NCBI GenBank assembly: GCA_036172245.1 | Contig: JAYWIR010000072.1 | Span: forward strand, 62,001-126,000 | Direction: 5' to 3' | Origin: Raillietiella orientalis | Taxonomy: Eukaryota | DNA: 64,000 bases | Part shown: positions 3,310 to 44,982 of the stretch, one piece after another | Numbering within the stretch: position 1 is the first letter of the stretch | Layout: each line of letters opens with the position of its first letter | The notes under the pieces: generated by a model | What the model saw: the letters and a program-made list of their open reading frames with translations, nothing else | Told to the model about the DNA's origin: nothing | Databases searched by the model: none | Position numbers and translations under genes: made by a program

Positions 3310-3408
3310 CGGACACCAACGATGTGAAAAAGCACACACTGAACCAAAAAGCCGCTTTCCGCTGCTCGTTCGCGGAGCGCCCGAAAAACACGTCCGCTCT
3401 CGAGGAGA

Positions 3409-3888
3409 GGGATTTGGGGAGGGCCCGCGTAACGAAAGGTGCTATCTTCAGGCCCGACGTTACGCGAGAACCCCCGACATTCGCAGGTTAGCAGAGTATC
3501 GAGCGGCAGCCGAGAGGCAAGCCTGGCAATCCGGGTAGGCCAGCTTGCTGGACGACCAAGGCCGGGAGCACTCGGTTCCCGCTCAGAAACGCGGGATAGT
3601 GAGGAAATTTTACTCCTCCCTGTACGCCAGGGCGCCTCCGGAGCGAGACGTCTCACGACTTCTGCTTCCGGAAGGTGCTCCAGCCATCGGGGAGGAGGAG
3701 AAAAGAAACCTTGACGAGCCTTTCACGATGGACGAGATCCTCTCGGCCATCGGAAAGCTCAAGAGGCGGAAGGCTCCAGGGTAGGACGGCCTGCCCGCGG
3801 AGTTTTACCAAACTTTCGCGGCTGAGATTTCCCCCTGGTACAGCAACTCACCTTGCTGATGCGCGAAACAGGTGACGTTCCCACCTCG
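3409..3888 (+). pseudogene. ORF2 fragment (linker to RT domain 0) of a sibling family; host of element A1
   Basis: GFGEGPRNERCYLQARRY...LLDDQGRE...KRRKAPG*DGLP. Confidence 0.8.
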
Positions 3889-4323
3889 TCATAGCACTGA
3901 GCTCCTCTTCTTTCACATCGAGAGCGCGCATGCCTTTCGAAAAGGCGCGCGCGCACTCTAAGGAATAGAAATTGCCTACCTTGTAGAACAATGAGGGTTT
4001 GTACCCCTCCTCTACATATGCCGACAATTCCGCCGCGGCTGCAGGCGATAGCGCCGACACAGCAGCGCTCTACGCCCGCGCTGCAGCGGGTACCGATTCT
4101 GTGGGGGCGGATGCCCCAACCTCCATCGCCTCTGGGGGCGACGTTGCCGTCGCCCTTTGCCTCTCCATCGCCTCTGGGGGAGGCCTTGCCGCTGCCCCCT
4201 GGCCATCCCTGGTGGTCGCGTCAGGCATCGCTTCCTGATCGACCGCCGAGCCACACAACGCTTGCACTGTGGGAGACTTCCTGGCACGAGGAGCACCGAG
4301 AAAACACGTCCACACTTAGCACG
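3889..4323 (-). mobile_element. 5' end and ORF1 N-terminus of a family D/F-type element
   Basis: GGACGTG at 4305-4311 (-); GYKPSLFYKVGNFYS is homologous to the other ORF1 N-termini. Confidence 0.75.
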
Positions 4324-6537
4324 CGAGGCGGTCGACTGCGTAAACCAGAAGCTCCTCTTGTAGCTTCTGGAACTTCTTGGATTTCCGGCGCATCTTCTGC
4401 TTTACTTGCGCGCTAGCGGACGCCACCTGCTCACCTGTATTTCTATTAGCGGCTGCCGTATGTACGGTGTTCTTGTAGGCACAGGCATTCGATAAGGTGA
4501 AACCTTTAGCTTCTTACTCTTCAGCACCTTCTTTTTGTTGGTGCTTGGAGCATACAGGCTCACGCTGCCTCACTTGCCAAGCTCCTGCCCGGGAACGTCT
4601 GCCGTGGCCGCCTCAGCTGATGACCTGCTTCTTCTGCTCCTTATGTCCACCCTGGCGTCCAGTGTCGAGGATTTCCTCGACCTGATTTGTCGGGGAGCGG
4701 GCGTGAGCGGAAACAGAGAGAAGAGCGTGGTCGTTCCTGTGGGTATGTCGAGGGATGGGTAGTCCGACTGGATCCGCCTAGGGATCCCCACGGGAGGGTA
4801 CTTTAAGTACCTTGGCGTTCCGTTGGGCGCTCTGGGCGCAGCCGAAACTCTGCTTTTCTGGAGACAGCTGTACTGTCTCCAGAAAGCAGAGTTGGTCATC
4901 AACCCGTTCTTTAACGGCAAGTTTCCCTTGCAGGAACGGGCGACTATTTGGAACACCTTTGTGGCCCCCCTCTTCCTTTCCCTGTTTTTTGTTTTAAACA
5001 CCCCTATGCGGCGAAAGAGAGGGCTACACGCCTGCTGAGGGACGCTCTCTGGGGTCCAACAAGATCCAGGATCCGCCTTAAAGATTTGTTAGCTCCGCGT
5101 CGGGATGCTGGTTTGGGTATCTTGACAATGGAGCGAATCGGACTGCAGGTGCAGTTCCGACTGCTGGCACTGTGTGCCCAGCTATGGACATCCCCCCTGT
5201 GTGTGCCAGCCCGCATTCTCCTACGGAGATGCACCGGCAGCGGAAAACTGCTCTCGCTTTTGCCGAGCACCTAGTACAAGAAGTGAGGTTTCGGGTTTCC
5301 ATTGCGGCAGTTGACCGCACTTCTGGAAGCTCACTCGTGGATCTCCTGACGCCCAATGAACTTTGAAGCTTGGCGGAAGGAGTCTGTCGAATCCTGAGCA
5401 GCGTTCCAAGGAATGCGCTCTGAAGATCTTTGCTTACTGCGGCATCTCCTTCCGCGATCTTTGGAAGAAGAACTGCAGGACGTGGTGAAGTTTTCTACCC
5501 TGGCTGCCACGCTTCTCACCGCAGAGCTGTCTGCCCTCAGGGCAAGAAACGACAGTTACCAACCGGCGAGGTGGGAGGTTTGCTGCTCGATAGCGGGGAA
5601 AACAAAACTCCTTGGCGCCTAGAAGACGAGTGATTTGGCGGACGCCGCCACTTTTAGTTGTACTTCAAAGGGACTTCTCCGGTGGGCAGAAGAACTTGCT
5701 GTCACCCCCGAAGAACTTGTAGTCCCTTTACAGTGTGTAGACAGTTCGCTGCTCCCCCGTGCTTAAAAACAAGCCGTGCGTTTTATCGTTCACTGGGGTT
5801 TTCAGTGCAACGAGGGTTGCTTTCGATACTCCTAGGGAGTTGCATCTGCCTACTGCGTCCGGTGCTGGTCGACGGAGTCGATTCCGCACCTACCTCTGAA
5901 CTCCGTTGTCCTACAAGGACTGTAGCGTAGGCTGGCAACAGCACTAATGCATCCCGTGGACACGGCAAGAGACTTGCTGCGACGATTCTTCACGCCGAGC
6001 GGGCTGTCCCTAAGCGCAAGGATTGCAACCATCGGTTGCATACGCGCGATAGTTTCGGTCCGCCAGGCGTTGGTAATCAACAACCAGCATCAAGAGGTAA
6101 TCAGCAAAACATCCTTTTACATGGAAGCATATGCTAGATGGCCTCATTTGACAGAGGAGACCAGAAGGAATCTCGCCGCAATACACCGCCGGTTTACACA
6201 CCCTCAGCAGCGGCCAACCCGGTGATCATTGTCCTACCCTCCATAAACTAATTTTGTATTTTCTTTTTACACCCGCGTCCCCATAGGCTCCGGAACATTT
6301 GAGGTGCTCATCGTTTAAATCCCCGTGAGTACGGAGCCTAACCAAAAACCCTTTTCCCTTCTCTCCAGTTTTTGATTTTTGTTTGTTTCCCCTCATTCCC
6401 CCACGCTGCGAGCGGTTTGTTTACCAGGCCTGCGTGCCGGTAATTTTTTTATGTTCGCTGTCGTTCTGTTGGTTGAGGACATTGTCCCTGACCAGTTTAT
6501 TATTATTAATGAACGCCCCGGCGTGACCGGGTGATAA
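4324..6537 (+). mobile_element. 3' half of a family C element (RT from the KAFD motif, C-terminal domain, 3' UTR, terminal hairpin)
   Basis: Collinear with 21515-23718; many stops and frameshifts; ends in AATGAACGCCCCGGCGTGACCGGGTG. Confidence 0.85.
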
Positions 6538-6880
6538 ATTTCAATCTCGGTCTGCTAACAGGTGAGCCAGAAACACAAGAGGACGCGATGAACCAGTTGT
6601 GCGCCGCCATGCGTGCGCGCAACTGGTTCGCAGGTGACAGAGGAATGGTCCGCAGCATCGACCACGTCTTTTTCGACGCTGACCTGTGTTCACAAGTCGG
6701 CAAACGGGGGAGGGTTGCGTCGACGTTGTCGGACCAATCCCGGTTAATTTTCGAGATGTGGCCTCGCGACCAAGGACCGCCATCCAGGGATTGGCGTCTG
6801 CTGGGGGACTGGACGCGACTCTCAGGTGCGAAGGAACACCTTCGCGAACACCTTAGAGGCATCACGCTCCGGAATCTCCA
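6538..6880 (+). pseudogene. Host ORF2 fragment: APE C-terminal half from (D)FN to TLRNL
   Basis: FNLGLLTGEPE...SIDHVFFD...LSD; paralogous to 23719-24061. Confidence 0.8.
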
Positions 6881-6962: not shown

Positions 6963-6974
6963 GTAAAATCGTTT

Positions 6975-11102: not shown

Positions 11103-14100
11103 ACGGCGTTGCTGCCATAACAGTGTCGCGGGCGTCCAGGCGGTTCAGGACGAGACGCCATCTTGTTCGGCTGGGGCGGCGCAGCCCTTTTCCTATGCGT
11201 TCGTGGCGGCTGGACAAGCGAGTGTCCACCCACTAGGAAAATTCGTGAAGCCGCTATGCGGTAAATTCCAAAAGCTGGATCGGCCGATCGTGGAGTTAGG
11301 GCCGAATGTGAAGCTTATCATTTTCAAGACTGGGCTGATCAAGTTTAATAATATCAGGGAGGTGTGTCTGTCCCTCGATAAAAAGGACATGAATTTTGAT
11401 TGCATACAGGCGATCATACCAGCTAACAACGGGTTCACAGTCTTCACAGACTGTGAAAAGACTAGAGAGCGATTGATCCAGAAGGGGATCAATATACAAG
11501 GGAGGATGGTTTGTGGTGTTGGCGAGATGCCATACACAACCGTGTTTCTGAACAACATCTCCATCGTCACACCGTAACTAAGATTTGGAAGTTTTTGGAG
11601 CAGTATGGGGAAGTTCTGGACCTTGAATTCCAGAACTTCTCTGGAAATATATTTTCTGGCGACATGATCGCCAAAATGAAGTTAAAAGAGGGAGCTGTGA
11701 TCCCTGGATTAGCCGTTCTTGACGAACAATCCCAGGGAGTGAACGTGCGTTACCGGCAACAACCGATATTCTGCACCGGGTGCAAGCAGTTCGGCCACAA
11801 AGCCGGAACTTGCCCAACGTGTCGTTGTTTCCGGTGCGGCAAAGTAGGACATCAAGTCCGAAAGTGCCCGCAGCCGGAGGTGTTCAACTTTTGCAAGAAA
11901 CACGGACATGCGAAATGGAGCTGTCCGGAGATTGCAAACTGCAGAAGGATTCCAGGTCTCTCTCCCGTGAGAGAGAGAAGCACCAAGGAGGCGGAACAGC
12001 CTCAGAAGGCAGGAAGGCCGAAGTAGGTGAGAAAAGCCGTCCCGGTATCGGAAGACGGCTTCATACAGGTAGGGAAGAAAGGAAAGAGGAAGATGCTCGT
12101 CAAGGAGCAAGAAACTTCTCTAATCCTACAAGGTGAAGAGTAAGAAGGCGACAAGATGAAGGTAGTGCAAGAATACGCGAAAGAAGAAATAGCCGAAGCC
12201 ACTCCGGTGTCGCAGGAGGCCCTGCAATCTACCGAGGAGTTGGCATCACTGGCTAATAAAGTCCAAGATGTGCAGAGCGGTCACCAGCGAGAGAAAATCT
12301 TGCAGAAGATCTGCAATGCACAAGAGTAGGTCAACCAGGTTGTGGAGGTCACCGAGCGCCAGAAGCTAGAAGAACAGCTTCTCGACGTAAAGGCGAACTT
12401 CTGCGCCAAGGTCGAAATAGAGGCGCTATCTCGAAAATTGATCGCGCGGGCCGAACACTCGACGGAGGAGCCGTAAGTAACCAACCTCACCGGAACAGAG
12501 AGTGACGCCGGCAGCAAGAAGCCGGCTGCTTCTTCATCGTCTGGAAGAGCACGCTCTCTCAGACAGAAGAAGCTCAGGAAGGCCAAGAAATAAGTCCTCC
12601 CCTTTCAGGGCCTCTTCTCTATCGACCGCCAGGAGGCTGAACATCTCCTCCTGGAATGTAAACGCTGTGGTCGACCAGGGAAAAAGAAAAAGGATTGTGC
12701 GGACCATCGCACGAAAAGACATAGTGTGCCTGCAGGAGACCCACAAGATGGGTCTCGAGATTAGTCAGCAAATGGAACAGCGATTCAACGGGCAGATTTT
12801 CGTCGGCAAGAAAGAACGGAACACGCAAGGTGTGGCGGTCCTAATAAGGAACAACTTGGCTTCCACTCTTCTGGAAGTGTTCTGTCCCCAAACCGGACGA
12901 ATCATCGGCGTGCGACTGGCCTGGTCCGCTACTGTTTGCCTCATCCTGGTGAACGTGTACGGGACGCACAGGCTAAAACATCGTTGTGCGGAGGCGCTGC
13001 ATGCAGCACTCCGTGAAAAGGTTACTTCCAAGGACGTCGTGATTGTTGCTGGCGATCTCAACATATTGGATCAGATCATTTACTCCGAAGACGCCAGAGG
13101 AAGGACGGCGTATCGGCGCTTATCCGACGAGTTCGGACTGGTGAGGCGAACTACAAGTCACAAGCCGATCGATCACGTCCTGCACAGCACGGAACTTGGG
13201 AATCGCATCCAGCGTTTTCGAGACATTATGACCACGGTGTCCGATCACCCCCTGGTGCGGTTTTCCCTAAGAACGGAGAATCCTCTGCAAAGGCAAGGAA
13301 CCAGGGCGGCGCTCATCAGCATGCCCGCCTGGTTCGAAACCCATCATGGACATCAGGCTGTCCTGGAGACGATTCTGAAGGCAACAACAATCCGAAGAGT
13401 CGCCGACTGGGACAGCCTGAAACACAGGATACACCTGTTTGCAAACATGCAGTTTGGAGATAGGCGCTTGAGGCAGGAGGCGTACCGGGAGCTGAACATC
13501 CAAGATCGCTCACTCTCAAAGTACTTCGATCAGTACGAGAGTTGGAACGTCTTCAAGAACATAAAAGGGGAAGTCGGCGTGCTGGAGAACAGAAATCTGG
13601 CAACAGATATCTTCTGCATCCAGTACGACGGTCAAAAGCCACAGTCCCCTGAGGACATCGTGGATGCCTTTCAAAGGCATTACACGAAACACTTCAGGCG
13701 ACAACATCTCTGTCGCTCTAGTCAACAGGCTTTTCTGAGCTACCTCGAGAAGAGGATCGACGATCTCCAGCGGAACAGACTGGAGGAGGAATTCTCCGAA
13801 GACGAGGTAAAGACTGCGTTTGGTCAACTACGCAAGGACGTGGCAGCGGGCCCTGACAGCGTACCCATCACTCACTATCAGCGGTACTTGCATGCCTACC
13901 TGCGTTTGTTCCACCAGTTGATTCTCGGCATCCGCGAAGAAGAAAGACTTCCACAGTCCTTCTACGAGATTCGGATGAGATTGTTGCCAAAAGAAGGCGA
14001 CTCTACCCAGATCGCCCAATGGAGGCCAATCTCGATCCTGAACTCCGATGCCAAGTGGTTGGCGAAGATCTGATCCAACCGCTTAGGCAAGGTCATGTCG

Positions 14101-16235
14101 AGGCTCATCTCTCCGGTCCAAACGTGTGCAGTCCTTGGACGTCACATGTCGGACAATTTCAAGTGTGCCCAGGCCACCGTCGGCCTCAGCCGATGCGTCG
14201 AAGAGAATCTGGCGCTGGTGTTCACTGACATGGAGAAGACTTGCGACTTCATCGACCATGGGATGCTGCTGAAGGTTCTGGAGAAACTAAGCCTTCCGGA
14301 ACACTTCAGCAACTTCGTGAGGGTGGTACTCCAGAACCAGGACTGCCCAATCAAAATCAACGGCCAGGAGACGGCAGCAATCCGGATAACACGGGGAGTC
14401 CGGCAGGGCGATTCGCTTAGTCCGATGCTGTTCGTCATCTACATGGAGGCGTTGTCGTCCTTTATCGAGAAGAGCGGACGACTGCAAGGCATAACAATCG
14501 ATGGTCAGCGTCTTATTCATCTGGCATACGCTGATGATCTACTCTTTTTTATCAAGGGAGAGAGACATCAACGAGGGTTTCTGGATGTGATAGACCTGAT
14601 GGATCAAGGCCTGGGTCTAAAGATCAACGCCCAGAAAATCCAGCTCTTTCTTGTTGGAATCCTCGATCTCTCTGCTCTAGCGGGAAGAGGATTCTGAACA
14701 GTAGACAAGGCCAAGTACCTGGGTGTCTCCATTGGCGACGTCTCCGCGTCGAAGCTATTGTGTACCGAGATCCTAGGGAAAACGGCCAAGGAAGCAGCCG
14801 AGTACACCCGAACGGACCTTGGAATGAAGCGAAAGGCCAACATATGGAACGGAGTACTCCTTCCAAAAGTGCTCTTCGGGGCGGCCTTCGCGAGGATGAA
14901 CAAGGAAACCACGAGGTAGTTCGACTAGCTGCAGAGAAAAGCACTGTGGGGCCACTATCGCCCAAGAGTCCGACTAAAACCCCTGTGTCGTCCCAGGGAA
15001 GAAGGCGGTTCCTGGATGAAGTCGCTTGCGCACTCCATAGAAATCATAAATACGCGACTCATCCTGGACATTGCCACTCACTGGGATGACTGGCCGTATG
15101 CGGCGCACAGGGCCTACGCGTTGCTGTTGAATAACTCGAAAGGCCTGATGACTGCGCTGCTTTGCCGAGCAGGCGTATGGAAAAAAATTGACCCAACCTG
15201 GACGAGGAAGCAACGGCTGGTGCGAAAGCACAAAATCAAGATCGTGCCGAGAAGTAGGGAACTCTGGCAGGACGAGTCCATCCTGGTGATCCCTTGGATG
15301 CTTCCTGTTTCGCCGGACACGAGAAGTTGGATCCACCAGCGGTCCAGAGTAACCCTTCAACGAATCCAGGAGTGGAAACGAGGAGGGTACCCACATCACA
15401 CTCGTATACTTAGGTATATAGAGATGATGTTAGGAAGGTTTACCCACATGACTCGCGAAGTGTGGTTCAAGCACTACGACTTTGCGTGGTCCAGAGTAAC
15501 CAAAACAAATTTCCGAAGACTAAATCAAGAAGAACATAGTGATATTAGTGCCCTCCAAAGAGCCGCCTATCGCTACGGAAGTGACCGGATCAACCTGTTA
15601 GCGATTGGCACGACGCTCTGAAGGAGTAACCTTCCGCCGGGCACCCAGGATGAATTCCTGATGTTTTATCATGGAGGAATCCAGAGTGGGTGCCGACTGC
15701 AGAACTACACCGGAATAAGGGAAGATCGAGACTGCACAGCATGTGGAGACATCGACACGAGACTTCAGGTCTTGACGTGTCCCACATTGCTGCATGACTG
15801 GCAGATCCTGAAAAGGATCATCGGACTCACGATTAGGTCCGTAATGGAGATCCTCGCCGGGATGTTTCAGGGGGATGGTAATGTTCCCTATTACAATCCC
15901 ATGGTGAGGACGACCATCGCCCTCTTCATCACCGCTATTCTTGTGCGTTGGTGGAAAAGGAGGTAAGCCAGAAGAGCCGCACCACCGATGGAGATCCTAC
16001 AAGGGCTCCTTAAGAGTTAAATCGTCATTAGAAACTGTGGGAAAATCCAAGCCTGTACGTACCGATTCATCCTGAAGAGGGTAGAAGACGACGCCCGGGA
16101 CCAAACAGCAGGAAACCCACCATGAGTGCAAAACTTGTGAGAACCCAAGGACTTCTTAGCGGTAAAAAAGTGCTAATGGTATGGATGAGATTGCAGTGTG
16201 AATGTTTTTATAGAAAAATTTTAGCAAAATGAATT
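11103..16235 (+). mobile_element. Family B: divergent L1/Tx1-type element, 5' end missing, degenerate
   Basis: ORF1 CTGCKQFGHKAGTC and CFRCGKVGHQVRKC; ORF2 SWNVN, LQETH, GDLN, IDH, SDH, WRPISILN, RQGDSLSP, YADD and CTACGDIDTRL..LTC. Confidence 0.9.
12593..16125 (+). pseudogene. Family B ORF2 (APE-RT-CCHC) with in-frame stops and a frameshift
   Basis: ORF pieces 12502..14073, 14095..14697, 15016..15621 and 15661..15966. Confidence 0.85.
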
Positions 16236-16239
16236 TACC

Positions 16240-16760
16240 CTACCATTCGTGGGACTTGGGGAAAACTGCCGATTCGGCGATGGGGCGACTGCATGCAGCG
16301 TGCTTTTGCTCGTCGCGACGCTGCTTTTTACGGCTTTCGTAGCCTTTGCAGAGGGGCCTTCGCTGCAGTGGGGCTGTCCGGAACTCGGAGGGGACAACAG
16401 AAAGGGGCAAGAAGCCTTCGCACTGTTGCGATCTTCCTGTTTTCCTACCTTTCCCTCCAGGGTGTTACGGAGATTTCCTGGTTCCTGGCTCGGAGAGGTG
16501 CCTGCGAGTTTGGCAGAGAGGGAAGACACAGCACGCGTCAAACCCTCGCGCCCCTTTTTAATTGGCTTCCCCGACGTGACTTTCCCCTTTCGGGGCGTTG
16601 CGGGCGGGAATGCGTTCTTTTCATCCGCGGATCGCTCGTGGTTTTTTGCGAGTTTTTGCGGACGACGTTTTTTATTTGCCGCTGCGGCTTTTCGTGCAGT
16701 GGTCTCTTAAACCCGACGAATTTCCGCTGCGGCTCTTTTTCTTCCAAGTACCTGGCACTT
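16240..16760 (-). pseudogene. ORF1 fragment (basic region after the zinc knuckles); host flank of B
   Basis: Paralogous to 35675-36190, which continues into CEQCGKDGH/CRYCKDAGH knuckles. Confidence 0.65.
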
Positions 16761-16764
16761 CTGG

Positions 16765-17822
16765 CAGTGCAAACAGAGGGTGAGCCGCGCGACGCGTTGG
16801 TCGACACCGAGGACGCCGCGTTCGCAAAGGCGGCGGAGGAGCTCGCGGCCACGCTAGCGGAGCGTGAGAACCCCTCACGCAAGGCCGTGCGAAGAATGGC
16901 TCCCGCGAAAAAGGCCCCCACAGGTGAGTCGGACCTGGGGGCTGGAAGTGCATCCTCCTCCTTGGAAGCACCCCCCAGGAAGTCGGGACACAAGTCCCAG
17001 AAACCCAGGAGCCGCCTCCCCTCCACCAGCGAGGAGGAGAAGCAGGAAGCTAGCGGTAGCGTGGAAATCCCGGAGGGGGAACTCCCACGTTCGGTAGCCG
17101 TCGAGCCGGCCACCCCCATGGAGGAGGGTGAGCAGGGGGGCGAAGTCCTCCCTGCAGTCTCCGAGCATGAACAGCCCGCCCCCATGGAGGAGGGCCAACA
17201 GGTAGGCGCGAACCCACCTGAGGGTGACCCGCTCGACGCGCCGTTACCCATGGGGCAGGGGGACCAGGTGCACGCAGCGCCTGACCCTCCTCCTCCACCT
17301 ACCGTCCCGCCCCAACAGGTGGCGGACGCCGCATCGCCATCTTCCCAGGAGTAACATTGGGGCTCGCCAGTCGCCGTCGGATTCGCGCCGCCTGTTGGAA
17401 CGTCAAAGGGCTGCGCGACGACGGTAACAGGCGAGATACGGCCGACACCCTGCGTGAGCTCGACCTGGCCCTGCTGCAGGAGATCCACGTGATCACAGCG
17501 GCAGACGCCCAGGAGATCGAGACGATCGCGGGAGGTCGGTTGTATTGGCGGTGCGGCCTCTGCAACACCTGCGGGGTTGCGTTCTTCGTGAAGCCGGCCA
17601 TCGACGCTGCCGTGAAGGGCGTGCGCTTCGATGACGACAGTCGGGTCGGTCAGCTGATTCTCAGCTGGTCCGACTCGATCGAACTGATCGTCACGAATGT
17701 GTACGCCCCCAGCGGTAAACAGGGATACAGCGACCGTACCAGGTTGCTGGAATCCCTGAAGCGCGACTGGCTGGCGGACACGAACGTGCGGAAGGCTCAC
17801 CTGATAGCGGGAGATTTCAATC
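16765..17822 (+). mobile_element. Family A copy: ORF1 C-terminus and APE up to GDFN (left host flank of C)
   Basis: Closely similar to the reverse complement of 1095-2150; stops exactly at GDFN. Confidence 0.85.
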
Positions 17823-17900
17823 GAGTGCGGACGTGTTTTTCTTCGCTCTCGTCTCCGTGCTTTCATCCGCTTCATCTGGGCGTCGTACATTTTGACGACG

Positions 17901-29990: not shown

Positions 29991-31671
29991 TCCCTTCCCA
30001 AACCCCTCCCTGCTTTTGTAAATAGTGTTTTCTTTTTGTTTTTTTCTATTTGTCCCTTCCTTCTCCGCTGCCGAGTCGACCTAGGGAGCCTGCGTGCTGC
30101 CCACTCGGCGAGTTCAGAAGAACATGTACTGAACACTGTAGGGGAGATAGCCCTACACTTGCTTGTTTATTTTTTTTTTTTTATTAAAGAAATAAACGCC
30201 CCGGCGCACCCGGGTGTAAAAGCAGTGCCGACTGTTGCCACTTCATGAGAAGGGTGCGCGAGTTCATAAGCACCGGGGGCCACTCGAGATGTTCCTCTGG
30301 AACATCCAGTAGCTCTCCCCAGCGCAAGAGTCCATTTGGGGTGGTCCTCGGGGTCGCAGCGTTGGTGAGCTGACCCGTTCTCCAATCCCCGATCTTCTTT
30401 GCCCTGCTGGCGTTCTTGACAGTAACCTCCCATTGTGCCGCGACGTCGCTACCCAGATGTTCCCGTAGGATAGGCAGTACCGCAGCAAGGGAGGTTCTTT
30501 GAGCCCACGCTCTCCTTCATGGATCCTTGAAGATTTCTCGGAGCGTGTGGTGGGCGTGAGGCTTAAACAGAGCTATTTGCTCGTGTTGCGGGCTCTGCTC
30601 CTGAATCATCGCCCACTTGCGCACGGTTTTTTGCAGCCAGGCAGGACCGTTCGCGGGGTGTACGAGAATCCGCGCCCAGTTGTTCTTCACGAGCTTGGCC
30701 GCCCTCCGAAGTTGAAGTCCGCAATGGCAGATGGGGCTTCGGAGTGCGAAGTAGGACGAGAGTCCCGCATTGCCGGTGGCCCGCTCGACGAGGAGACGTG
30801 CAGGGAGGCACCAAGGGGTGCACCAATTTTCTGCCATCAAGGCGACAACTCGGAACTGGAGCTGTATCTCAAGCCGCTCAGACGTCAGGAGGCCCAGACC
30901 ACCATCCCGACGAGGAGCGCACAAGTCCGAAAGACCGACTCAGGGCCTCCCTCTGCCTTAAAGGGCGATCCTCAGGAGGTGCTCCGTCCTCTTCTTTGAC
31001 TCCGCTGAGGGGGGGCAAACAAAAAGCAAGGGGCGAAGGAGGGGGGCCGCAAACGCGTTCCACGCCGCGGCCCGTTCCTGCAGGAAGAACCTGCCGTCCT
31101 GGAAGGGGCCGATCGCCGCCTCAGCCTTCTGAAGGCAGCCGGATCACGCTTCCGCAGGGGAGTAATCCCCCAACGGCACACCAAGGTACTTGAAGTACCT
31201 CACCGTGGGGATCCTCAAACGGACCCAGTCCTGCTGCCGTACCCACGCCGCTCCGACTGGCATTACGGACGACTTCGCCCTGTTCACCGTCAGTCCTGTT
31301 CCCCGACTCATCAGGTCGAAGAACCCTCGACCGCCGCACCCGGGGTGGACATAGGCAGCAGCAGCAGAAGGTCTTCCGCGTACGCCGAAACCGCAGGCGC
31401 AACGGCACAATCGCACGGAAGTTGCGAAAGGCTCCCTGTACGCTCTCAGCACCAATTCGAAATAGGCGCTGAAGAGCAAGGGGCTGAGGCTGTCAACCTT
31501 CCGCATGCCGCGTCGCACCGGTACGCCGTACACGGTTGATCCACTGAAAAAACATCAATAAGCGCGTCGCGCCAGCTAAAGCGCAGGTGGACCAGCAAAG
31601 AGGCTGGGAAGTCCAAGCGTTCCAGAAGCTCCAAAAGGAGATTCTGGTCGATGCAATCGAATGCTTTATGG

Positions 31672-34744: not shown

Positions 34745-35670
34745 TGTTGATCCGAGAAGCTGGATCCACCAGCGGTCCAGAGTTACCCTACAACGAATCC
34801 AGGAGTGGAAACGAGGAGGGTACCTACATCACACTCGTATACTTACGTATATAGAGATGATGTTAGCAAGGTTAACCCACATGACTCGCGAATTGTGGTT
34901 TAACCACAACGACTTTGCGTGTTTCAGGGTAACCAAAACAAACCTCCGAAGACTAATTCAAGAAGAAAACAGTGATATCAGTGCCCTCCAGGGAGCCGCC
35001 CTTCGCTACGGGAGTGACCGGATCAACCTGTTAGCGATTGGCACGACGCTCTGGAGGAGTGACCTTCCGCCGGGCACTCACGATGACCTCCTGATGTTTA
35101 ATCATGGAGGAATCCAGAGTGGGACCCGATTGCAGCACTACACTGGGAGAAGGCAAGATCGAGACTGCACAGCATGTGGAGACACCGACACGAGACTTCA
35201 CGTCTTGACGTGTCCCGCATTGCTGCATGACTATCTGATTCTGAAAAGGATCATCGGACTCACCACCAGGTCCGTAATGGAGATCCTCGCCGGGATGTTT
35301 CAGGGGGATGGTAATGTTCCCTGTTACAATCCCATGGTGAGGACGACCTTCGCCCTGTTCATCACCGCCATACTTGTGCGGTGGTGGAAAATGAGGAAAG
35401 TCAGAAGAGCCGCACCACCGATGGAGATCCTACAAGGGCTCCTGAAGAGGGAAATCGGCATTAGAAACTGTAGGGAAATCCAAGCCTAGACGTACCGATT
35501 CATCCTGAAGAGGATAGAACTCGACGTCCGGGACCAAACAGCAGGAAACCCACCATGAGTGCAGAACTTCTGAACCCATGGACTTCATAGTGCAAAAGAC
35601 AGTGCAAATGGTATGAATGAGACTATAGAGTGTATGTTCTTTTACAAAAATTTTTGAAAAATAAATTTAC
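34745..35670 (+). mobile_element. 3' part of family B, copy 2
   Basis: Collinear with ~15310-16235; CTACGDTDTRLHVLTC. Confidence 0.85.
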
Positions 35671-35674
35671 CGCA

Positions 35675-36360
35675 CCCCTTGTGAGATTTGGGGAAACCTG
35701 CGGAGTCGGCGATGGGGCGACTGCGTACAGCATGCTTTTGCTCGTCGCGACGCTACTTTTACGACTTTCGTAGCCTTTGCAGAGGGGCCTGCGCTACAGT
35801 GTGGCTGTCCGGAACTCGGAAAGGACAACGGAACAAGGCAAGAAGTCTTCGCACTGTTGCGATTTTCCTGTTTTTCTACATTTCCCTCCAGAGTGTTACG
35901 GAGATTTCCTGGTTCCTCGCTCGGAGACGTGCCTGCGAGTTCGGCAGAGAGGGAAGGCATGGCACGCGTCAAACCCTCGCGCACTTTTTAAATTGGCTTC
36001 CCCGCCGTCACTTTCCCCTTTCGGGGCATTGCGGGCGGGGATGCTTTCTTTTCTTCCGCGGATTGCTCGTTTTTTTTTCCTTGTTTTTGCGGTCGACGTT
36101 CTTTATTTGCCGCAGCGGCTTTTCGTGCAGTGGTCTCTTGCACCCGACGAATTTCCGCTAAGGCTCTTCTTCTTGCAAGTACCGGGCACTTTTTGATTTC
36201 GTGACCGGCATCTTTGCAATAGCGGCATCTTGGACAGGAGCACTCTTTAATTCGGTGCCCATCCTTGCCGCACTGCTCGCACGCGCGAGTCTGACCTATG
36301 AACCACAGGTAAACGACGTTGCCGTTCACCTGCAGCTGCTCGGGCACAACACGCCTGTTC
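35675..36360 (-). pseudogene. ORF1 fragment with two zinc knuckles
   Basis: LWFIGQTRACEQCGKDGHRIKEC..CRYCKDAGHEIKKC. Confidence 0.8.
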
Positions 36361-36411: not shown

Positions 36412-39400
36412 GATGGCGACAGTTCTGCTCGACGACCACGACCTTGAATGCTCGGCTCCAGTCGAAGTTTGCCACCCGGATATGCCGGGGCATTTATTAT
36501 TCTAATTTTCTACAAAAATTAGATAATAAAGTCTTTCAAAAGTTAATTGTGGGAAACACTTGGTTTTCCCAGCTTGGTTGACGTGTCTGTTGCCGGTGCA
36601 TAGACCGGTTAGGTCCATTCCCGAGGCGCATGGGAAGGGAAAACTAAAACAAAAACAAACAAAAAGAGAGATAACGGGGAGGGAAACAGTTGTATGGGGA
36701 GAGGGGGGGGGCAGGGAAGGGATCACTGAGCGCCTGGGTCGGTCCTCCGCTTCCTGTTCAGGATGCAGTCAAGTTCTGTTTTAACTCTGAAAGGTAGACG
36801 CCACCTTGTCGCCGTCTCTAAAGAGATCGTAGTTCAGTGGATGGCGTCCCTGCATCTTGGGCCTCTTCTTCTGGCGTGCCACCTTTGCACAATGCCGTGC
36901 ACGCAGCAGAGGACTGCTAGAGACGCGGCGGGGCGCAGGCCGTCACGCAGAAAGAGGCGACGGTAAATTTCCTTAGGGTCGCCTACTGGAAGATGGAGGA
37001 TTGGGGCGATTCGACTCCAGAGTCCATCCAGGGCGACACACTCGAGGGTGAGATGCGGGAAGGTTTCTCTTTCTCCGCACTCGACACAGCGGGCATCCAC
37101 ATTTCCCAGTGTCCAGTGAGACAGGCGTGCTCTGCTTAACAGTCCCCAGTCCAGTCGGAGTGCGACGGATAGTCAGGGGCTATTACTCTTCTCTGTATCC
37201 AGAGTCACCGACGGAACGCAGCCTCTCCCGGCTGCTTCTGCCGATTGACGCACCTGTTGTAGACGAGGAGGAGCGCGCGCGTCTCGATAAGCCCTTAACG
37301 GCAGAGGAAGCTTCCTCGGCCATCTCAGGGCTCAAGAGACGAAAAGCGCCAGGCGAAGATGGTCTCCCCGCGGAATTCTTTCAGTGTTTTGCGGCCGAGC
37401 TCATCCCCCTGGTGCTCCAACTGTCGTCGCTAATGCGAGACTCGGGCGATGTTCCCCCCTCGTTTCGCTCAGCGAAGGTGCGTCTCCTGCCGAAAGGCGG
37501 AGACTTGCGCCAACTGAACAACTGGCGTCCGATCACATTAGTGAATTCGGACGTCAAGTTGTCCTCGAAACTTAGAGTGGCGCGGATGGGTAAGATCGCG
37601 GAATCCTTGGTAAGTCCGGAGCAGACGTACGCAGTTCCTGGGCGGTCCATGGACGCGAATCTCTTGTTCATCCGCACATGGCTGCAATTGAAGTATCGTG
37701 TCGCGGTGGATCGTAGTGCGGAAGCGACGCCTTCGATCTCTCACCGACGGAGGCGCGGGACGCAAAGGGAGAAACCGGGAGCCTTGGCGGTTGCAGTCGA
37801 TTTGCACAAAGCTTTCCATTGCGTGAACCAAAATCTTCTTCTTGAGCTTTTGGAACGTCTGGTTCTTCCGGCATCCCTGTTGGCGTACTTGCGCTCCTGC
37901 TGGCGCCACGCGATTACATCCATTGTTTTCAGTGGCTGTCGCGTGTACGGCGTGCCGGTACGACGAGGAATTAGGCAGGGTGACAGCTTAAGCCCACTGC
38001 TCTTCAGCATCTATGTTGAATTGGTGCTGGAGGCTTACAGACTGACGCTAACCAACCTGCCGAGCTCCTGTCCAGGTACGCCGGCCGTGGCAGCCTATGC
38101 CGACGACCTGCTTCTCCTGTTGCCCATGTCCACCCCGGCGACATCGCTTGAAGACTTCTTTGGGTTGATTCGTCGCGGTGCGGGCGTGAGCGTTAACAGG
38201 AGTAAGTGTATGGTTGTTCCGGTGGGTGCGACGTGGGAGGGGCAGTCCGACTGGATCGACCTGGGGATCCCCACGGGCAGGTACCTCAGGTACCTTGGCG
38301 TGCCGTGGGGCGACTTCTGCATCTCAGAAGCGTGGTCGGACTGCCTTCGGAAGGCAGAGCCTGCACCTGGCCCGTTTTCAGGAGGCGAGTTCGTCTTGCC
38401 GGAACGGGCCTGCATCTGGAACACCTTCGTTGTGCCCCTCCTCCGCCCCCTGTTTTTTGTTTGTCCATACCCCCAGGAAGTCAAAGTCTGGGCGCAGCGC
38501 CTTCTACGCAAAGCGTTGTGGGGCGCTGCAAGATCCCGTGTTAGACTTAAGGAGTTGGTGGCGCTGCGTCAGGATGCAGGCTTGGGCATCTTCGACTTAA
38601 ACAGCATCGAACTGCAGCTGCAGTTCCGCATGCTGCGGCTCTGTGCCAAGCTGTAGTGTACGCCGTGGTGCTTACCCGTACGCCTTATACTGAGGCGCTG
38701 CACGGGAAGCAAGGGACTACTTTCGTTGCTACCCCACTTTCGGCACACCAGAATAGGGTTTGGCTTCTTGCTGAGGCAGCTGTGCTCACTGCAGGAAGCC
38801 CCAATCTGGATCTCCTGCCGCTCCATGAACATTATTGCATGGCGGCAGGAATCTTTTTCATCGTGGGCAGCTTCCGAAGGAACACGGCCGGAAGATCTTC
38901 GACGCCTGCGCCTTCTCCTCAGTCATCAAATGGACGAAGTCATGCAGGACAAGAAGTTATCGGATCGTCTGGCCGCCACACCACTCGCCGAAGCGCTGTC
39001 TGCCCCTAGGGCAAGCAACGACGGTTGCCTATTAACGGAATGGGAGTTCTCCTGCAAAATACCGGGAGTCAGTAAGCTCTTCGGCAGCTGGACGACAAAG
39101 GAGCTGATGCAAGCCGCCACTCCTCGGAATCGGGCGAGGGGCCTGCTTCGGTGGAGCGAACATTTAGGTGTGCCTTCCGGAGAGATAGTGGTTTCCCACG
39201 TTTGTTTTGACAGCTCCGTGTTCCCCCTTAAGTTGAAACAAGATGTGCTGCTCTTTTTACATTGTGCATTACCCTGTAATAGGCAGCGAAGCATCGTTTC
39301 CGGGGGAGCTGCTTTGCAAAACTGTTAAAGGTGCGGAGAGATCGAGTCTTTTCCGCACCTTTTGCTGGACTGCGGTGTCCTCCGGGAACTGTGGAAAAGG

Positions 39401-40028
39401 CTCACTTCGGCCATCATGCCACAAGGAGGCACTGCCATTGATGTGCTGCGGTGCTTTTTCAGCAGAAATGGACTTTCGGTTGGCGCGATTGTCGCAACCA
39501 TGTGTTGCGTTCGCGCCATCGTGAAGGCCCGCTACGCTCTGGAGTTGTCAGCGCAGCGAAGGGAGGCTCGCCTGCTTGCAGCTCAATTCATGGAGAAGGC
39601 TTCAAGGTGGTCTTATCTTCGTGACAAGGTGAATGAGGACATCACCGGCATAGATCGCCGGTTTACACACCTTTGAGAACGGCGTAATCCGGTGACCCCT
39701 GCGACCTCTTGCCCACCCATACCTTGTCCCCGTTCGCTCGGTAAAATTTACAATGCCCATGCTTTTATCCCCGTGTCTTCCAGAGCGATCACAAAGACCC
39801 TTATCCCGTCCTCCTTATTCATTGTTTTTATTTTATTTGGTTTCTTTGTGTTTCTCGCCCCCCCACTCCGTTCAAGAAACTGTAACTCTGGCCTGCGTGC
39901 CAGCAATTTTCTCTTCATTCTTGTTCAGTCGTCGGTTGGGAGTTTGGTTACCAACTGGTTTTTTTTGTATAATTGCTTTTTTTGGTAGTGTTATATGGAA
40001 TAAACGCCCCGCCGTGACCGCGTGAGAA
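36412..40028 (+). mobile_element. Family E copy 3 (linker, RT, CCHC, 3' end), interrupted by J at 36469-37149
   Basis: ATVLLDDHDLECSAPVEV resumes as PVGVRRIVRGYY; ORF 37109..38656 has the RT motifs including YADD; 3' motif at 39999-40024. Confidence 0.88.
36469..37149 (-). mobile_element. 5'-truncated family J element with 12-bp TSD (1 mismatch)
   Basis: TCCAGTCGAAGT (36457-36468) vs TCCAGTCGGAGT (37150-37161); CVECGERETFPHLTLEC; 3' motif at 36473-36498 (-). Confidence 0.85.
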
Positions 40029-41916
40029 ATCTCCCAAGCTTGATCTGCGGAGATCACGTGGATGTCCTGCATCAGCACCAGGTCGAAGGATCCCAGGGTG
40101 GCGGCCACGTCACGCCTCTTGCCGTCGTCGCTTAGCCAGTTCACGTTCGAACAGGCTATCAGCAGACGACGGCGAGAGGCTATTCCCGGCATTATGGTTG
40201 GGAAAGTTGCGTCGAGGCACCTCATGCGGTGCAGGTGTAGGAAAGGTTCATCGGTACGAGGACCATCGGAACGAGGACGGAGGCCTCTTCAGGCACCTGG
40301 GGTACCTGTTCGGCCTCCATCCCCTCCATCCCCTCCGTGTCCGAGCGTGGAATTCTCTAGGGTGACGGGTCCCAGGAGTTTCCCACGCTCATGGCACCCT
40401 CGCTACCGGAAGCCATTTCTTCCCCTTCGTTGGGGGATGCGATCTTCCGGGGCATTGTGGACTTTCGTCCTGCCTTTTTGCGGGGAGCCGCGGAGGTGGA
40501 TGCAGTGTTTCCGGCCTCCTCCTCGGGTTCGGAAGTGGCCGACCCCTGAGGAGAAGCCGGACGCCTTACGGCCTTCTTGCCAGCCTTGGGGGCGGCCGGC
40601 TGAAACGAGGCAGCCAGCTCCTCCGCGGTGCGCTCGAAGGCGACGTCTGGCGTCCGGCTTCCCCTTCCGCTGACGGACGCCGTCGCCTCGCTCCCCTCCT
40701 TGTTGACTTTGTCAACGGAGGGTTGAGCGGAGACAGCAGCGAGTGCATTTGTGCCGCATTCATCGATGGCGGGAATCCGCTCAACGACGACGCAGCAACC
40801 TTTGATATTCTCGGGGCGAGGAGGGGTGTCTCTCCGTTATGCCACCTTGTTTCCCTTCTTAGGGGCTTTTTTCTTAGGGTCGACTTTTGCCACCCTGACT
40901 CTTGGCCTTCTTCCTCGACCTTTTCGGCGTTTTCAGCCGAAGTCTTCGGACTAGCCTTCGCCTTGGTGGCGGAGCTGACCTCCTTAGCAGCAGCACGAGC
41001 TGCCAGCTTCTTCCTTTTTTTTGCCGCGCGCTTTCTTGCGTTTCTCGCGGACGCGACGCGGACTGAATTTTGTGGGCACACCAGACGAGTGTGCCATGCT
41101 TGCTTGCACTGCTGGCACTGTACGCTCGAAAACCTCATTTTGAGGTGTCCAAAGCTGCTACAGCAGCCGCAGAACTTGGGTTTCCCCACGTACCACACGT
41201 CGACGGATTCACCGTTGACGGTGAGTTTGTGGGGAAACTCACACCCTTCGCAAACCTTCACTCGCGCTGCACCCAGGCCGCCAAGCAACCCGTCGTAATC
41301 AGCGAACGAGGTTGGCTTCCCCCACAGCGCGTGGACACTCGCAAATTTATTTATTTCGTTCCGGACCGCCTCCTTGGTCATCCCGAACGTAATCCCAGTC
41401 AGGTGAATGATCACCGACCTGTCTTCCGTTATTGGAAAGAGCCTTCGGCTGCCCATCATTACGGGGGTTCGCAGAAGCCTCTGCGGAAGAGTTGCTTCCT
41501 TGCAGATTACTGCCGCGAATTGTCCCCCGCTTCTGACGGACATTGCAAGAAGCTCCTTTTTTACGTCGAGAGCGCGCATCGTTGGCGAAAAGGCGCGCGC
41601 GTACTCTGGAGAATATAAACCGCCTACCTTGTATAGGAGGGGTTGGTTGTACCCCTCCTCCAGGTAGGCCCGCATCTTTACCACAGCCGCCGGCGTAGGC
41701 GCGGCAGCCACGGCGTTCCAAGCCCTGGGTAGGGCCGGGGACGCATCAATGGGGGCGGGAGCCTCCACTTCCATCCCCTCCGGGGGCAATGGGGTCATCG
41801 CCCCCGGAATATCACCAATGGTGGAATCAGGTATTGCTGCCTAATCCTTCACCCACACCACACAAAACACCACCGGAAATAGAAACTCAGGAGCAGCGAA
41901 AAGACACGTCCGCTCG
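40029..41916 (-). mobile_element. 5' part of an F-type element: 5' UTR, ORF1, TAATG, start of APE
   Basis: GGACGTG at 41905-41911 (-); ORF 40566..41798 with CGCCSSFGH and CQQCKQAWH; TAATG at 40190-40194 (-). Confidence 0.85.
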
Positions 41917-43831
41917 ACGCTCCAGAGCCTTTCGCACTGGGAACTCTTCAAGGCCTCGGTCCGGGAGTTCTGCGAGCAGTTCCCCTTGGACCGCCTGCCT
42001 CCCGGATTCGGTGAGGGTCTTCGCAACCATCGGGCCTATTTACAGGCTCGTAGGTACGAGAGAGCTCCTAATGTCCGTCGCCTGGCCGAGTGCCGCACCG
42101 GGGCCGAACGCCAAGCCTGGCAATCCGGGTCGGCCAGCTTGCTGGACGACCAGGGCCGGGAATGTTCGTCCCCGGCGTTCGTACGGCATCTCGTGCGGAG
42201 TTTTTATTCCTCCCTTTACGCCAGGGAGCCCCCGGATCGAGACGCCTCTCGGCGCTTGCTTCCGGATGGCGCCCTGGCAATAGGGGAGGAGGAGATGGAA
42301 AGCCTAGACGAGCCTTCTACCACCGGCGAATTTTTCGCCGGTATTAAAAGGCTCAAAAAACGTAAAGTTCCAGGGGAAGACGGCTTACCTGCGAAGTTGT
42401 TTCAGAGCTTCGCGGATGAGCTGGCACCCCTGATGCTCAAGTTGATCAGGCTGATTCGAGACGAAGGCGATGTTCCCGCCTCGTTTCGGTCAGCCAGAGT
42501 AAGGCTCCTCTTGAAAGGGGGAGACCACAGAGATTTAAAGAACTGGCGTCCGATTATGATCGTGAATACGGACGCCAAGTTAATATCAGGGCTATGGGCT
42601 TCGCGTCTGGGACAGGTGGCAGAGTCCACCTTGCCGGTGCGAGGGACTTACGTCTTTTCTTCTGTGCCCCGGCCGGAAGATCAGAAGATGCGGCCTAAAT
42701 CTCGGGCGCATGGCATCTTCGGCCATGCAAAACAGCTGGATGGTTTGCTGCCCCGCCAACTCCCCCGCCTGGCTGGAGGAAAATATTGGAACATGGGCAG
42801 TGGTAAAACAGAGAAGCCACGTAACGTGGAATCGTCTCCGATGCGGCCCCTACGCCCGCTGCACTCTGAGGAATCTCCTGGAGAGTCCAGCTAGAAGCAC
42901 GTGAGCAGAGACTACCTGCCTGGCTACGGCGCTGCCCTTCCTGAGGAGGGCGCTTCACAGCAGTCAGACGCCAAGGTGGCAAGTCTCCTGCTGCATCAAG
43001 GGACGGGAGAAGAGAATGAGCGGCTAAACCTTGGATCAACTGGCGTACGCCACGATTTTGAGCGTCCAGTCGCGAGGATTAAGATGGGGCGAGCTGCTGG
43101 CCATCCCTGTGGATGTGCTGAAGTGGCTCCCGCTTCTTAGGGAATCCAGGGTCCTGGCCCTTAAGTGGAAGGAGTCGGCGTTGTTGTTGTTGCATTGGGG
43201 TTTACCCTGCAACGCACGCCGCTCTCACTGGACAAGAGGAGTTGTGGATCCTGTGTGTGTCAGGTGCGGAGAGCGGGAATCGCTCTCCCACCTTATTGTG
43301 GATTGTGCTGCCCTCCGTCCCCTTTGGGAACGTTTCGGGACGACCCTCGGTCTGCCTACGGACAGTTCCCCTAAAGACGTTCTTCGGCTTCTCTTCGTGA
43401 AGGACGCCCTGCAGCCAGCAGCAGCCCTCGCAGCCTTGTGCTGCGTCCGAGGCATCGTAGCGGTATGGAGCGACAGCAACAAGGAAGGAGTGTGTCAGCA
43501 AGCGAGGGATGTCATCCCATATGCCCAACGCTTCTTGCGGAGCTGCTGGATGGCCCCAACTGGGGAATATACGGATAGACCTCGAGGGCTTCCTTCAACG
43601 GATGGGCCCTCCTTTCAGCGAACAGTGATCCCTTTCCTGCCCTGCAACCTCTTTGTTTGTTTGTGGTTTTGTTTTTTTACTTTTGTTTTTTCCCCATCTT
43701 CTTTCGCTGCCGGGGAGTGCCACGCCGGGCTGCGTCCCGGCGTCCCGGTAGGTCCCGTGCATATGGCCGTGAGCGGGGCCTGGTACCGCAATTGTAGAGC
43801 TTTATTAATAAACGGTGTACCCGGGTGGCAA
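41917..43831 (+). mobile_element. A-type ORF2 (linker to 3' end) with a large internal deletion near 42630
   Basis: LPPGFGEG..KVPGEDG..NWRPI, then a jump to the C-terminal domain CVRCGERESLSHLIVDC; 3' motif at 43807-43827. Confidence 0.8.
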
Positions 43832-44235
43832 CACCAAATCCCCGGGGCAGGCAGTGCACAGAGAACTCCTCGCAGAACTCACGGACCGAGGCCTTCATGC
43901 GGTCCCAGTCTTGGGGATTCCGGAGGAAGATGCCTCCCAGTACTTGGCGGAGATCTTCTGCCGCACCTGAGATGCGCGTCCAGTCCCCGGGAAGACTCCA
44001 CGCCTTGCATGGTGGTCCTTTGTCGCGAGGCATAACCTCGAATATCAACCGGAAATGGTCCGATAGCGTCGACGGAAGTTCCCCCCGTCTGCCGACCCGT
44101 GGGCACAGGTCGGCGTCAAGGAAGACGTGGTCTACGCTTTGGACCATTTCCGGTATTTCCTTCAACATGTTGAGCGTGCGCATAGCAGCGCACATCTCGT
44201 TGGCTGCGTCTTTTTGCCCGCAAGGCACAGCTAAA
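43832..44235 (-). pseudogene. Host APE C-terminal/linker fragment ending at LPRGFG
   Basis: SVDHVFLD..LSDHFRL..EEFSVHCLPRGFG. Confidence 0.8.
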
Positions 44236-44259
44236 AGCAGGGACGCGGTGAAGTGTAAG

Positions 44260-44836
44260 GCCTGAATGTGCCAGGTGTGGAGAACGGGAATCGCTCACCC
44301 ACCTACTCGTTGAATGTGCTGCCCTCCGACCTAAACGGGAACGGATTGGGACGATGCTCCGGCTCATAATGGGCAGCGCGCCCAAAGACGTTCTTCGGCC
44401 CCTCTTCGTGCGGGACGTCTTGCAGCCCGCCGCAGCCCTCGCAGCCTTCTGCTGCATTCGGTGCATCGTGGCGGCCTGGAGCGACATTCGCGACGAAGGA
44501 GTGGATGCAAAGAGAGGGATGTCATCCCTTATGCGGTCTGCTTCATGCGGAGAGCTGCGAGATGGCCCCAACTGGGAAGCATGCAGAAGGACCTAGAGGG
44601 CATCCTGCAAAGGATGGGAACTCCCTCCAGTGAATTGTGATCCCTTGTTCCTTCTCCAAACTCTTTTTGTTTTTCTTCATTTTTATTTTTATTTTGTTTT
44701 CTCTACCATCCCCCTCCACTGCCGAGGAGCGTCACGCCGTCCCGGCAGGTCCGGTGTTGTGTGGCCGTTAGTGGAACCTAGTACCACGTGATGTAGAGTT
44801 TTTTAAATAAACGCGCCGGACGTACCCGGGTGGCAG
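44260..44836 (+). mobile_element. 3' end of a second A-type element
   Basis: C.RCGERESLTHLLVEC; UTR similar to 43620-43831; 3' motif at 44806-44832. Confidence 0.8.
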
Positions 44837-44982
44837 CCCCGAATCCCCGGGACACGCGTTGCAAGGGGAACTCCTCGCAAAACTCGCGCACCGAGGCCTT
44901 AAAAAGGTCCCAATGGTTGAGTTGTCGGAAGGTGACGCCTCTCAGGAATTCGCGAAGGTGTTCTTTCACACCTGAGAGTCGC

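Follow-up and report, generated by a model that had tools for sequence, protein, structure and literature searches.

Long interspersed nuclear elements (LINEs) with fixed targets shelter in ribosomal DNA (rDNA), small nuclear RNA genes, telomeres, microsatellites, DNA transposons and long terminal repeat (LTR) elements. In the Tx1 clade, one survey describes Tx1L in the piggyBac element Tx1D of Xenopus, Tx1-Mar in Mariner-N4_AMi, Tx1-8_Crp and Tx1-4_AMi in LTR elements, and Tx1-9_AMi in Harbinger (PMC4494074). As described in two reports, the L1-type element Zepp uses its own copies as target and forms tandem arrays of 3' ends, with one cluster per chromosome, located at the centromere (PMC3446292, PMC8226300). 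Here, a clade of Tx1/L1-type LINEs was found that take shelter inside the coding sequences of their nearest competitors. The stretch analyzed, referred to as the window, comprised 64,000 nucleotides (G000:C72:62001-126000) of a 210-Mb genome in 491 contigs, and its positions 1 to ~52,000 formed a nest of related two-ORF (open reading frame) non-LTR retrotransposons with APE endonuclease and reverse transcriptase (RT) domains. The host is presumably an animal, as the actin in locus L161 was taken to be an animal cytoplasmic actin. The initial annotation of the window had proposed that "family A" elements inserted at the same Gly-Phe-Gly (G-F-G) codons in three different hosts.

All three junctions were present (Table 1). 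As claimed, the two A-type 3' ends stopped at the same base, 5656-5657 of the element, and both antisense hosts started at the homologous base 2733-2735; element bases are numbered on the full-length A1 copy of 5,657 bases in locus L064. The A1 5' end at window position 3409 met base 2726 of a third host type, identified as family B, and the peptides of both antisense hosts read as quoted. On the full A1 copy, the 5' and 3' junction registers gave a 10-base overlap. The A1 piece at window 1-3409 belonged to a 5.3-kb Tx1/L1-type LINE seated in sister family B, the 3' end of which lay 1.9 kb left of the window (G000:C72:60111). The predicted duplication of ~10 bp was seen directly in this copy, as it (G000:C72:65409 to 60111) was flanked on both sides by CCCCAAATCC. 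The exact motif GGATTYGGKG occurred five times in the window, namely, at the three junctions, 681-690 and 42004-42013, and at least five exact matches were obtained in 2 of 100 Markov simulations (mean 0.74). With one mismatch, the count was at chance level (17 observed versus 17.6 expected); thus, the motif count alone is weak evidence, and the junction register is what carries the argument. Among the eight homologous G-F-G sites in the window, three were interrupted and five intact (681, 10812, 20690, 27273 and 42004).

The three hosts proved to be clearly different, and independent insertion into them was borne out by host identities, a host tree and duplications. The family E host and host H were 74-80% identical, the former (43832-44240) was 83-92% identical to hosts in L095 and L098, and host H (44837-48360) had no relative above 80% among the examined loci. 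The two inserted 3' ends were 73% identical to each other versus 86-89% to copies elsewhere. In an alternative reading, all copies go back to one or a few old insertions, spread by segmental duplication or through transposition of an A-in-B composite, in which case the hosts would be one duplicated locus. The similar ages of A1 copies (88-95% alike) and B hosts (89-97%), near-identical pairs such as L011/L012, and the 74% likeness of window blocks 43250-44061 and 44261-45066 fit this alternative, but each half of the two blocks had closer relatives elsewhere. In a tree of 38 B copies, which leaves out L101 and L126, seven changes were required for 10 filled hosts, the nearest neighbors of filled hosts were empty copies, and a single clade of filled hosts was rejected (approximately unbiased test, p 2e-36). 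Element and host distances were uncorrelated (rho -0.23 and 0.03; 21 pairs, 7 copies). Moreover, the same base was struck in at least five host families, at least four subfamilies being involved and the duplications being host-specific, and 5'-truncated copies carried duplications of their own (L014, L020 and L027). Multiplication of old insertions is therefore largely refuted and was considered highly improbable. Two points weigh on the other side: the B tree was star-like, with the label "filled" weakly unclustered or clustered (26 of 500 shuffles as low), and some loci, e.g., L011/L012, were recent duplicates. Consequently, the counts overstate the number of events somewhat. Even so, the insertions were very likely independent and site-specific.

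The initial annotation had also called for a genome search for intact A copies with flanking duplications. Fourteen A1 copies could be read at both ends. In four of these, the duplication was exact and in four others it had 1-3 mismatches, with B on either side in both groups. Other target alleles were copied faithfully in duplications as well, namely, CGCCGAAACC in L235, CGCCAAATCC in L014 and CCCCGAATC in L027. Empty B sites held a single 10-mer copy in 29 of 29 B loci outside the window (30 loci were fetched as the best of 40 scored from 1,157 candidates; one was in the window). In an independent DNA run, position 2326 of L066 was joined to 8000, skipping the element, with 11 letters fitting both sides (one contig). 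Less favorable were the remaining 6 of the 14 two-ended copies, three with different hosts on the two sides and three with a tandem copy, and an ACTCC form found in 11 of 30 5' copies of the 10-mer, none of 29 empty sites and 1 of 55 3' copies; because of these, the junctions must be regarded as reworked. The ACTCC form was considered as an inherited lineage mark and rejected, as it did not form one clade (seven changes, 42 of 500 shuffles as low). Likewise, a fixed 3' flank of 730 bases apparently carried with A1 was an artefact of the reference copy, family C interrupting B at that base. Separately, in L064, L074 and L075 the host family differed between the two sides of full-length A1 copies, which suggests recombination between copies or misassembly.

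Specificity was measured across the genome. A pattern search with the A1 5' terminus gave 47 matches, and 19 of 19 exact matches and 9 of 10 with one mismatch lay at the site (28 of 29). The 18 matches with two mismatches were about as many as in a reversed control (16), and 2 of these 18 adjoined the site. In the case of A1/A-type 3' ends, the 10-mer came next in 19 of 29 loci outside the window (15 in an antisense host, 3 tandem and 1 rearranged), the loci being the best 30 of 40 scored from 1,279 candidates. The initial annotation would have been undermined if most other A copies lay elsewhere; about half of the A-type 3' ends did lie off-site, while intact A1 5' ends almost never did. An unranked A-type 3' pattern, which also catches other families and was read by eye, was on target in 48 of the first 100 listed of 243 matches (the other 143 lie on smaller contigs), and the off-site remainder counts against strict specificity. 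Off-site A-type copies were typically short, with duplications of ~10-14 bases that began C-C/A/G-C-C, similar to the first four bases of the family's site. Near-confinement to the site is thus a property of intact copies and not of truncated ones. Both figures, 28 of 29 A1 5' ends and 48 of 100 listed 3' ends, exceed the >20% of flanks taken as a target preference in Tx1 elements (PMC4494074). On-target copies formed clusters, frequently at contig ends and tens to hundreds of kb in length, with short copies dispersed; clusters were found on contigs C5, C26, C33, C35, C53, C60 and C74 and many small contigs, several per contig on some. Two A-type 3' ends lay at the same off-site sequence, CCTCCAAGGCT, in a sister ORF1 (L074 7657; G000:C26:871282), a possible secondary site, and family H had many dispersed copies beginning ACAR.

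This distribution might instead reflect loose insertion with a 4-base core only, followed by selection, so that long copies survive only inside elements and the antisense orientation is kept for silencing RNA or a chromosome function. The dispersed short copies with only that core, the clustering of on-target copies, often near contig ends, and the antisense orientation in most families agree with such a process. However, selection cannot give one base in 5.7 kb for 28 of 29 copies when GGGG occurs throughout the elements, family F was always in sense (seven junctions), and 47% of B sites were filled versus none of A1's. Selection after loose insertion was thus judged very unlikely.

"Family A" did not hold as one family but comprised several (A1, A3, A5 and others) with different preferred hosts, A1 being found in B, A3 in E and A5 in the P/K family. 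The 30 A1 5' flanks consisted of 23 B, 2 D, 2 other, 2 tandem copies and 1 contig end. Antisense self-targeting, claimed for host H, was not borne out as stated: host H belongs to the A clade (76-80% identity to A1 and A5) but not to the family of the inserted piece. The 5' end of host H itself lay in sense within the ORF1 of another element, not at G-F-G. At A1's own site, none was filled (32 junction matches) and 17 were empty, versus 53 filled (55 matches less 2 E-type) and 60 empty at the B site, i.e., 47% filled (p 8e-5). When A1-, A5- and M-type sites were pooled, ~6 were filled and 85 empty, and two junction patterns (C119 and C129) resembled A5-type in A5-type; same-family insertion is thus rare. 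A elements strike sisters both within the A clade and beyond it, and largely leave their own family alone. Tandem re-insertion occurred at the regenerated 10-mer, and tandem copies arose only there. In addition, a synonymous form of the first glycine codon, GGT, was found in 17 of 60 empty versus 2 of 53 filled B sites (p 7e-4), which suggests a synonymous escape allele of hosts; this is only suggested, since the GGT-form B copies were younger and junction bases can be overwritten.

Table 1. Features of the window (positions in the 64,000-nucleotide stretch)
Position	Strand	Feature	Remark
1-3409	-	A1 5' 3.4 kb: ORF1 (2251-3441 frame, zinc knuckles), APE, start of RT linker	94.7% identical to full-length A1 in L064
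681-690	-	A1's own G-F-G site, empty
850-1535	-	A1 APE endonuclease, ~20 residues shorter than relatives between GDFN and SIDH aspartates	measured on the 92% identical L064 copy
3410-3419	+	target 10-mer GGATTTGGGG, G-F-G codons of host B; 5' copy of the A1 target-site duplication	second copy after the A1 3' end in L061
3410-3889	+	host family B, downstream half (APE-RT linker), antisense to A1	93-97% to B copies in L232 and L069; 70% to A1
3890-4325	-	5' piece of a family inserting antisense at RT D-L-H-K-A-F-D codons (base ~3553), here in an F copy
17816-23718	+	family F, full length, in sense at GDFN codons of A5-type APE	second F 3' end at 6537
24062-24718	-	family B 3' end at base 2655 of A5-type host (23719-24061)	second such junction at 6881
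24720-30220	+	full-length family J element, antisense at base ~5000 of a B copy
37181-40028	+	antisense insertion of family C at APE base 2016 of B	C 3' ends also at 7766 (-) and 31909 (-)
40029-41925	-	family B 5' half, antisense at base ~2647 of A5-type element (B's return strike)
41926-43831	+	A5-type element, downstream half, internal deletion	3' end adjoins host E at G-F-G
43832-43841	-	target 10-mer GGATTTGGTG in host family E
43832-44240	-	family E fragment (APE end to G-F-G), host of the A5-type element
44241-44836	+	A-type 3' piece (A1 bases 5049-5656), 3' end adjoins host H at G-F-G	86-87% to A1/A3
44808-44836	+	clade-wide 3' terminus: AATAAA, GC-rich stem-loop, no poly(A)	same at 43808-43831
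44837-44846	-	target 10-mer GGATTCGGGG in host H
44837-48360	-	host H: 5' half (ORF1 and APE) of an A-clade element of its own family	broken at 45592-46304 by another 3' piece

The G-F-G site is one node in a wider network, in which each of about ten sister families has its own fixed site in ORF2. Antisense sites were located at bases 2008-2016 (C), 2042 (H), 2647-2655 (B), 2726-2735 (A1, A3, A5 and others), 2904 (P), 3308 (D), 3553-3564 (G), ~5004 (J) and 5051-5063 (E). A rule of always antisense insertion was rejected, as family F inserted in sense at base 2313 in all seven of its junctions, a junction that recurred in L075, L097, L150, L232 and L234. B strikes A in return, 80 bases upstream of A's site, and mutual hits were found both for A and B and for D in B with B in D/A5-type elements; in L069, D and A1 sat in the same B copy and B in that A1. 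At its own site, family B also formed tandems, arranged head to tail about a duplication of 9 bases (L232, G000:C11:4608500-4618499; L061 1975). The families thus form a network of mutual parasites, not a random pile.

The right-hand block of the window appears, from its junctions and with the far halves missing, to be a chain of such events: host H; an A-type element at the G-F-G codons of H; E at base 5049 of this A-type copy; an A5-type element at the G-F-G codons of E; B at base 2647 of the A5-type copy; and C at base 2016 of B. The A5-type element had its own site (42004-42013) empty, and its left end was cut by family B at B's site. The family E fragment at 43832-44240 probably also represents an insertion, antisense and at base ~5049 of the A-type element that follows, so that a plain truncated insertion is a less fitting description of 44241-44836 than the downstream half of an A-type element that E split at E's site. 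For 43832-44836, twin-priming inversion was considered, given that the top-strand end would be able to pair with the G-F-G site of the RNA itself. It was dropped on two grounds: the piece and the 3' piece belong to different families, the former being E, and their joint falls at the site of E, as it does in L024/L096 and L099. Host H also contained an 83-base tandem duplication (95%) at 44983-45145, and the separate 3' piece at 45592-46304 sat near host H base 2060.

All families shared the 3' terminus type, and the stem was conserved in 20 aligned ends. As none of seven pairs showed a two-sided compensatory change, it is conservation that argues for the stem-loop. No poly(A) tail was found in the 20 aligned ends or in 61 clustered 3' ends, and the nick site was G-rich, so the poly(A) tail and TTTT/A target of mammalian-type L1 were both lacking. 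ORF2 had the Tx1/L1-group architecture of an N-terminal APE, RT and C-terminal zinc motif, with PF03372 and PF00078 matched over the cut-off and zf-RVT below it (E 0.006). ORF1 agreed with the type that has RNA-binding folds and CCHC knuckles (two knuckles visible in translation, zf-CCHC below the cut-off), and its atlas neighbors included ZCCHC3-type clusters (0.91-0.93). Such an ORF1 type marks Tx1, and membership of that clade fits the architecture. Among 20 protein matches, none was a named Tx1 protein, and the only close relative was the ORF2 protein P0001 from a metagenome (69% identical; others 20-27%). A metagenome scan with P0001 gave seven distant loci (22-35% identity, and 61% over 28 residues in one match), and one protein fell below E 1e-10 among 1.84 billion representatives. 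The relatives in the metagenome of P0001 and in one DNA run (X1) indicate that the clade exists beyond this assembly.

The endonuclease lacked the beta-hairpin (bB6-bB5) that precedes the SKID aspartate in L1, TRAS1 and R1Bm APEs. The GDFN and SIDH aspartates were 41 residues apart versus 60 in the L1 endonuclease (L1-EN), and the GDFN and SDH aspartates 65 apart versus a median of 87 in the 68 scorable of the 150 best matches, three of the 68 having 68-71. A predicted APE model kept the catalytic residues and the L1-EN fold (Z 23, root-mean-square deviation 2.5 over 207 residues; predicted local distance difference test score 72), with a 14-residue low-confidence loop at the hairpin region. 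In published work, TRAS1/SART1 swaps show that the endonuclease decides the site (PMC1919474), and a neighboring surface loop of R1Bm is predicted as a major-groove reader (PMC1950540). The loop after Y-A-P-S-G, which may correspond to that R1Bm loop, was rich in R, K and Y, common to A1 and A5, and different in B, E, F, H and J; the comparison covered these families. Between A1 and A5, which share a site, the N-terminal APE part was 91-93% alike versus 74-84% elsewhere. As a side observation, the endonucleases (A1 bases 1850-2500; L064, L235 and L234) were mosaic, A1/A5 being 91-93% alike in the N-terminal part and A5/D 95% in the C-terminal part versus 74-89% elsewhere, and segments look to have been swapped between families.

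Taken together, the data probably reflect a radiation of Tx1/L1-type APE retrotransposons that uses the ORF2 of sister families as a multicopy landing pad, with family-specific nicking and RNA-primer pairing over four bases. The host coding strand would be nicked just after the G-F-G codons, i.e., after GGATTTGGGG. The nicked 3' end would then prime reverse transcription (target-primed reverse transcription, TPRT) at a fixed point a few bases behind the 3' stem-loop, leaving poly(A) uncopied, aided by pairing of ~4 bases between the first four bases of the site and the RNA 3' end. A second-strand cut ~10 bases upstream would give the antisense insertion and the 10-bp duplication, and the 5' end would be joined via a few bases of overlap. 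Reading of the longer specificity would fall to the endonuclease and, as the usual hairpin is missing, probably to its family-specific basic/aromatic loop after Y-A-P-S-G. The gain could be a harmless multicopy site together with destruction of a competitor. On balance, we lean slightly toward a site choice led by the protein.

Several observations weigh against this reading. According to PMC1919474 and PMC1950540, TRAS1 and R1Bm need the hairpin for recognition, and its deletion cripples L1-EN. D and A5 were 95% identical in the APE C-terminal part but used sites 3308 and 2735, respectively, so the site changes faster than this part. The target sites of the families shared no common motif, and stops or frameshifts were found in most copies. 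Moreover, dispersed copies began with the same four bases that open the usual site of their subfamily (CACC in 3 of 4 A3-type copies, CCCC in 4 of 6 A4-type copies with no CACC, and ACAR in family H), which would also be expected if the RNA selects the site.

In that alternative, a weak, hairpin-less endonuclease would nick loosely, and the tail of a read-through transcript, carrying the host antisense strand, would pair with the primer strand of other copies of the same host, so that the target is inherited with position, not with protein. Read-through pairing is known for R1Bm. The lack of poly(A) in any 3' junction agrees with such guidance, as do the ~ten unrelated sites in one clade, the common APE C-terminal part of D and A5 with different sites, and the fact that A1 spares its own site, distinguished from that of B chiefly by the flanks. 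The filled host L067, moreover, had two of three GGT-linked alleles, yet GGA stood in both copies; this is, however, a single case. Against it, A1 also lay in hosts of other families, other target alleles were duplicated faithfully and not overwritten (L014, L027 and L235), the APE N-terminal part and the loop tracked the site between A1 and A5, and long read-through is not expected because AATAAA lies ~25 bases before the end. RNA-guided target memory was therefore considered unlikely. A broader version, in which a guild of LINEs without the target-reading hairpin inherits its target via RNA, read-through tails guide copies to the same sister-family codons, and hosts escape synonymously (GGA to GGT), appeared slightly more doubtful still. 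If RNA-inherited targeting were true, a stray copy landing in a multicopy sister would found a new target, giving a self-organizing network whose members parasitize one another, avoid their own kind and take part in an arms race, and the elements would be a natural RNA-programmable TPRT system. The elements also provide a natural panel in which near-identical endonucleases (50-95% alike) differ in their targets and have no hairpin, suited to test APE target choice, a long-standing question that bears on tools for site-specific gene insertion.

Other features were observed in the window. A distant L1/Tx1-type lineage (APE 27% identical to A1) was nested in the cluster at 12481-16760 and 34753-36191 and in L233 at 4437-5096, and the hairpin region of its APE was equally short. 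Outside the nest, an ORF at 62624-63229 (+) had a zinc motif and no Pfam match; after this motif, there is presumably a restriction-like endonuclease motif, as in R2/NeSL-type elements. Two nested inverted repeats lay at the lower-GC right end of the window, 55583-57699/58520-60668 and 54201-54836/61387-62027, with identities of 83% and 68%, respectively.

In the literature searched, no LINE targeting the ORF2 of another LINE was found, with Repbase Reports, subscription papers and the supplements of PMC4494074, any of which may list a case, lying outside its scope. The elements resemble Tx1-clade LINEs in their two-ORF APE structure, zinc-knuckle ORF1, animal host, fixed site in another mobile element, duplications, and tandem copies sandwiching a duplication. 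Unlike those LINEs, the present ones enter the ORF2 of sisters from their own clade, the targeting is mutual with ~ten sites in use, and the endonuclease is without the hairpin that Tx1L has. Zepp of Coccomyxa and ZeppL-1_cRei of Chlamydomonas are likewise L1-type LINEs that enter existing copies and form nested clusters, as PMC3446292 and PMC8226300 describe; here, however, insertion was at a single codon block, mostly antisense and mostly into other families, and insertion into same-family copies, typical of Zepp/ZeppL, was not found at A1's own site (0 filled, 17 empty). With R1Bm, TRAS1 and SART1 of the R1 clade, the elements share APE-directed insertion at one site of a multicopy sequence and a 10-14 bp duplication, but the targets of those LINEs are host repeats (rDNA and telomeres), and their hairpin is kept and needed, as stated in PMC1919474 and PMC1950540. 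Nested group II introns of Methanosarcina acetivorans, as described in PMC4424553, show repeated site-specific homing into related retroelements, multi-level nests and a perpetual, harmless homing site. They are of another element class, RNA-guided by exon-binding sites and spliced out, and thus serve as an analogy only. In the present clade, hits run both ways and form a readable interaction web that joins ~ten sister families and bears signs of self-avoidance as well as of a synonymous escape allele.

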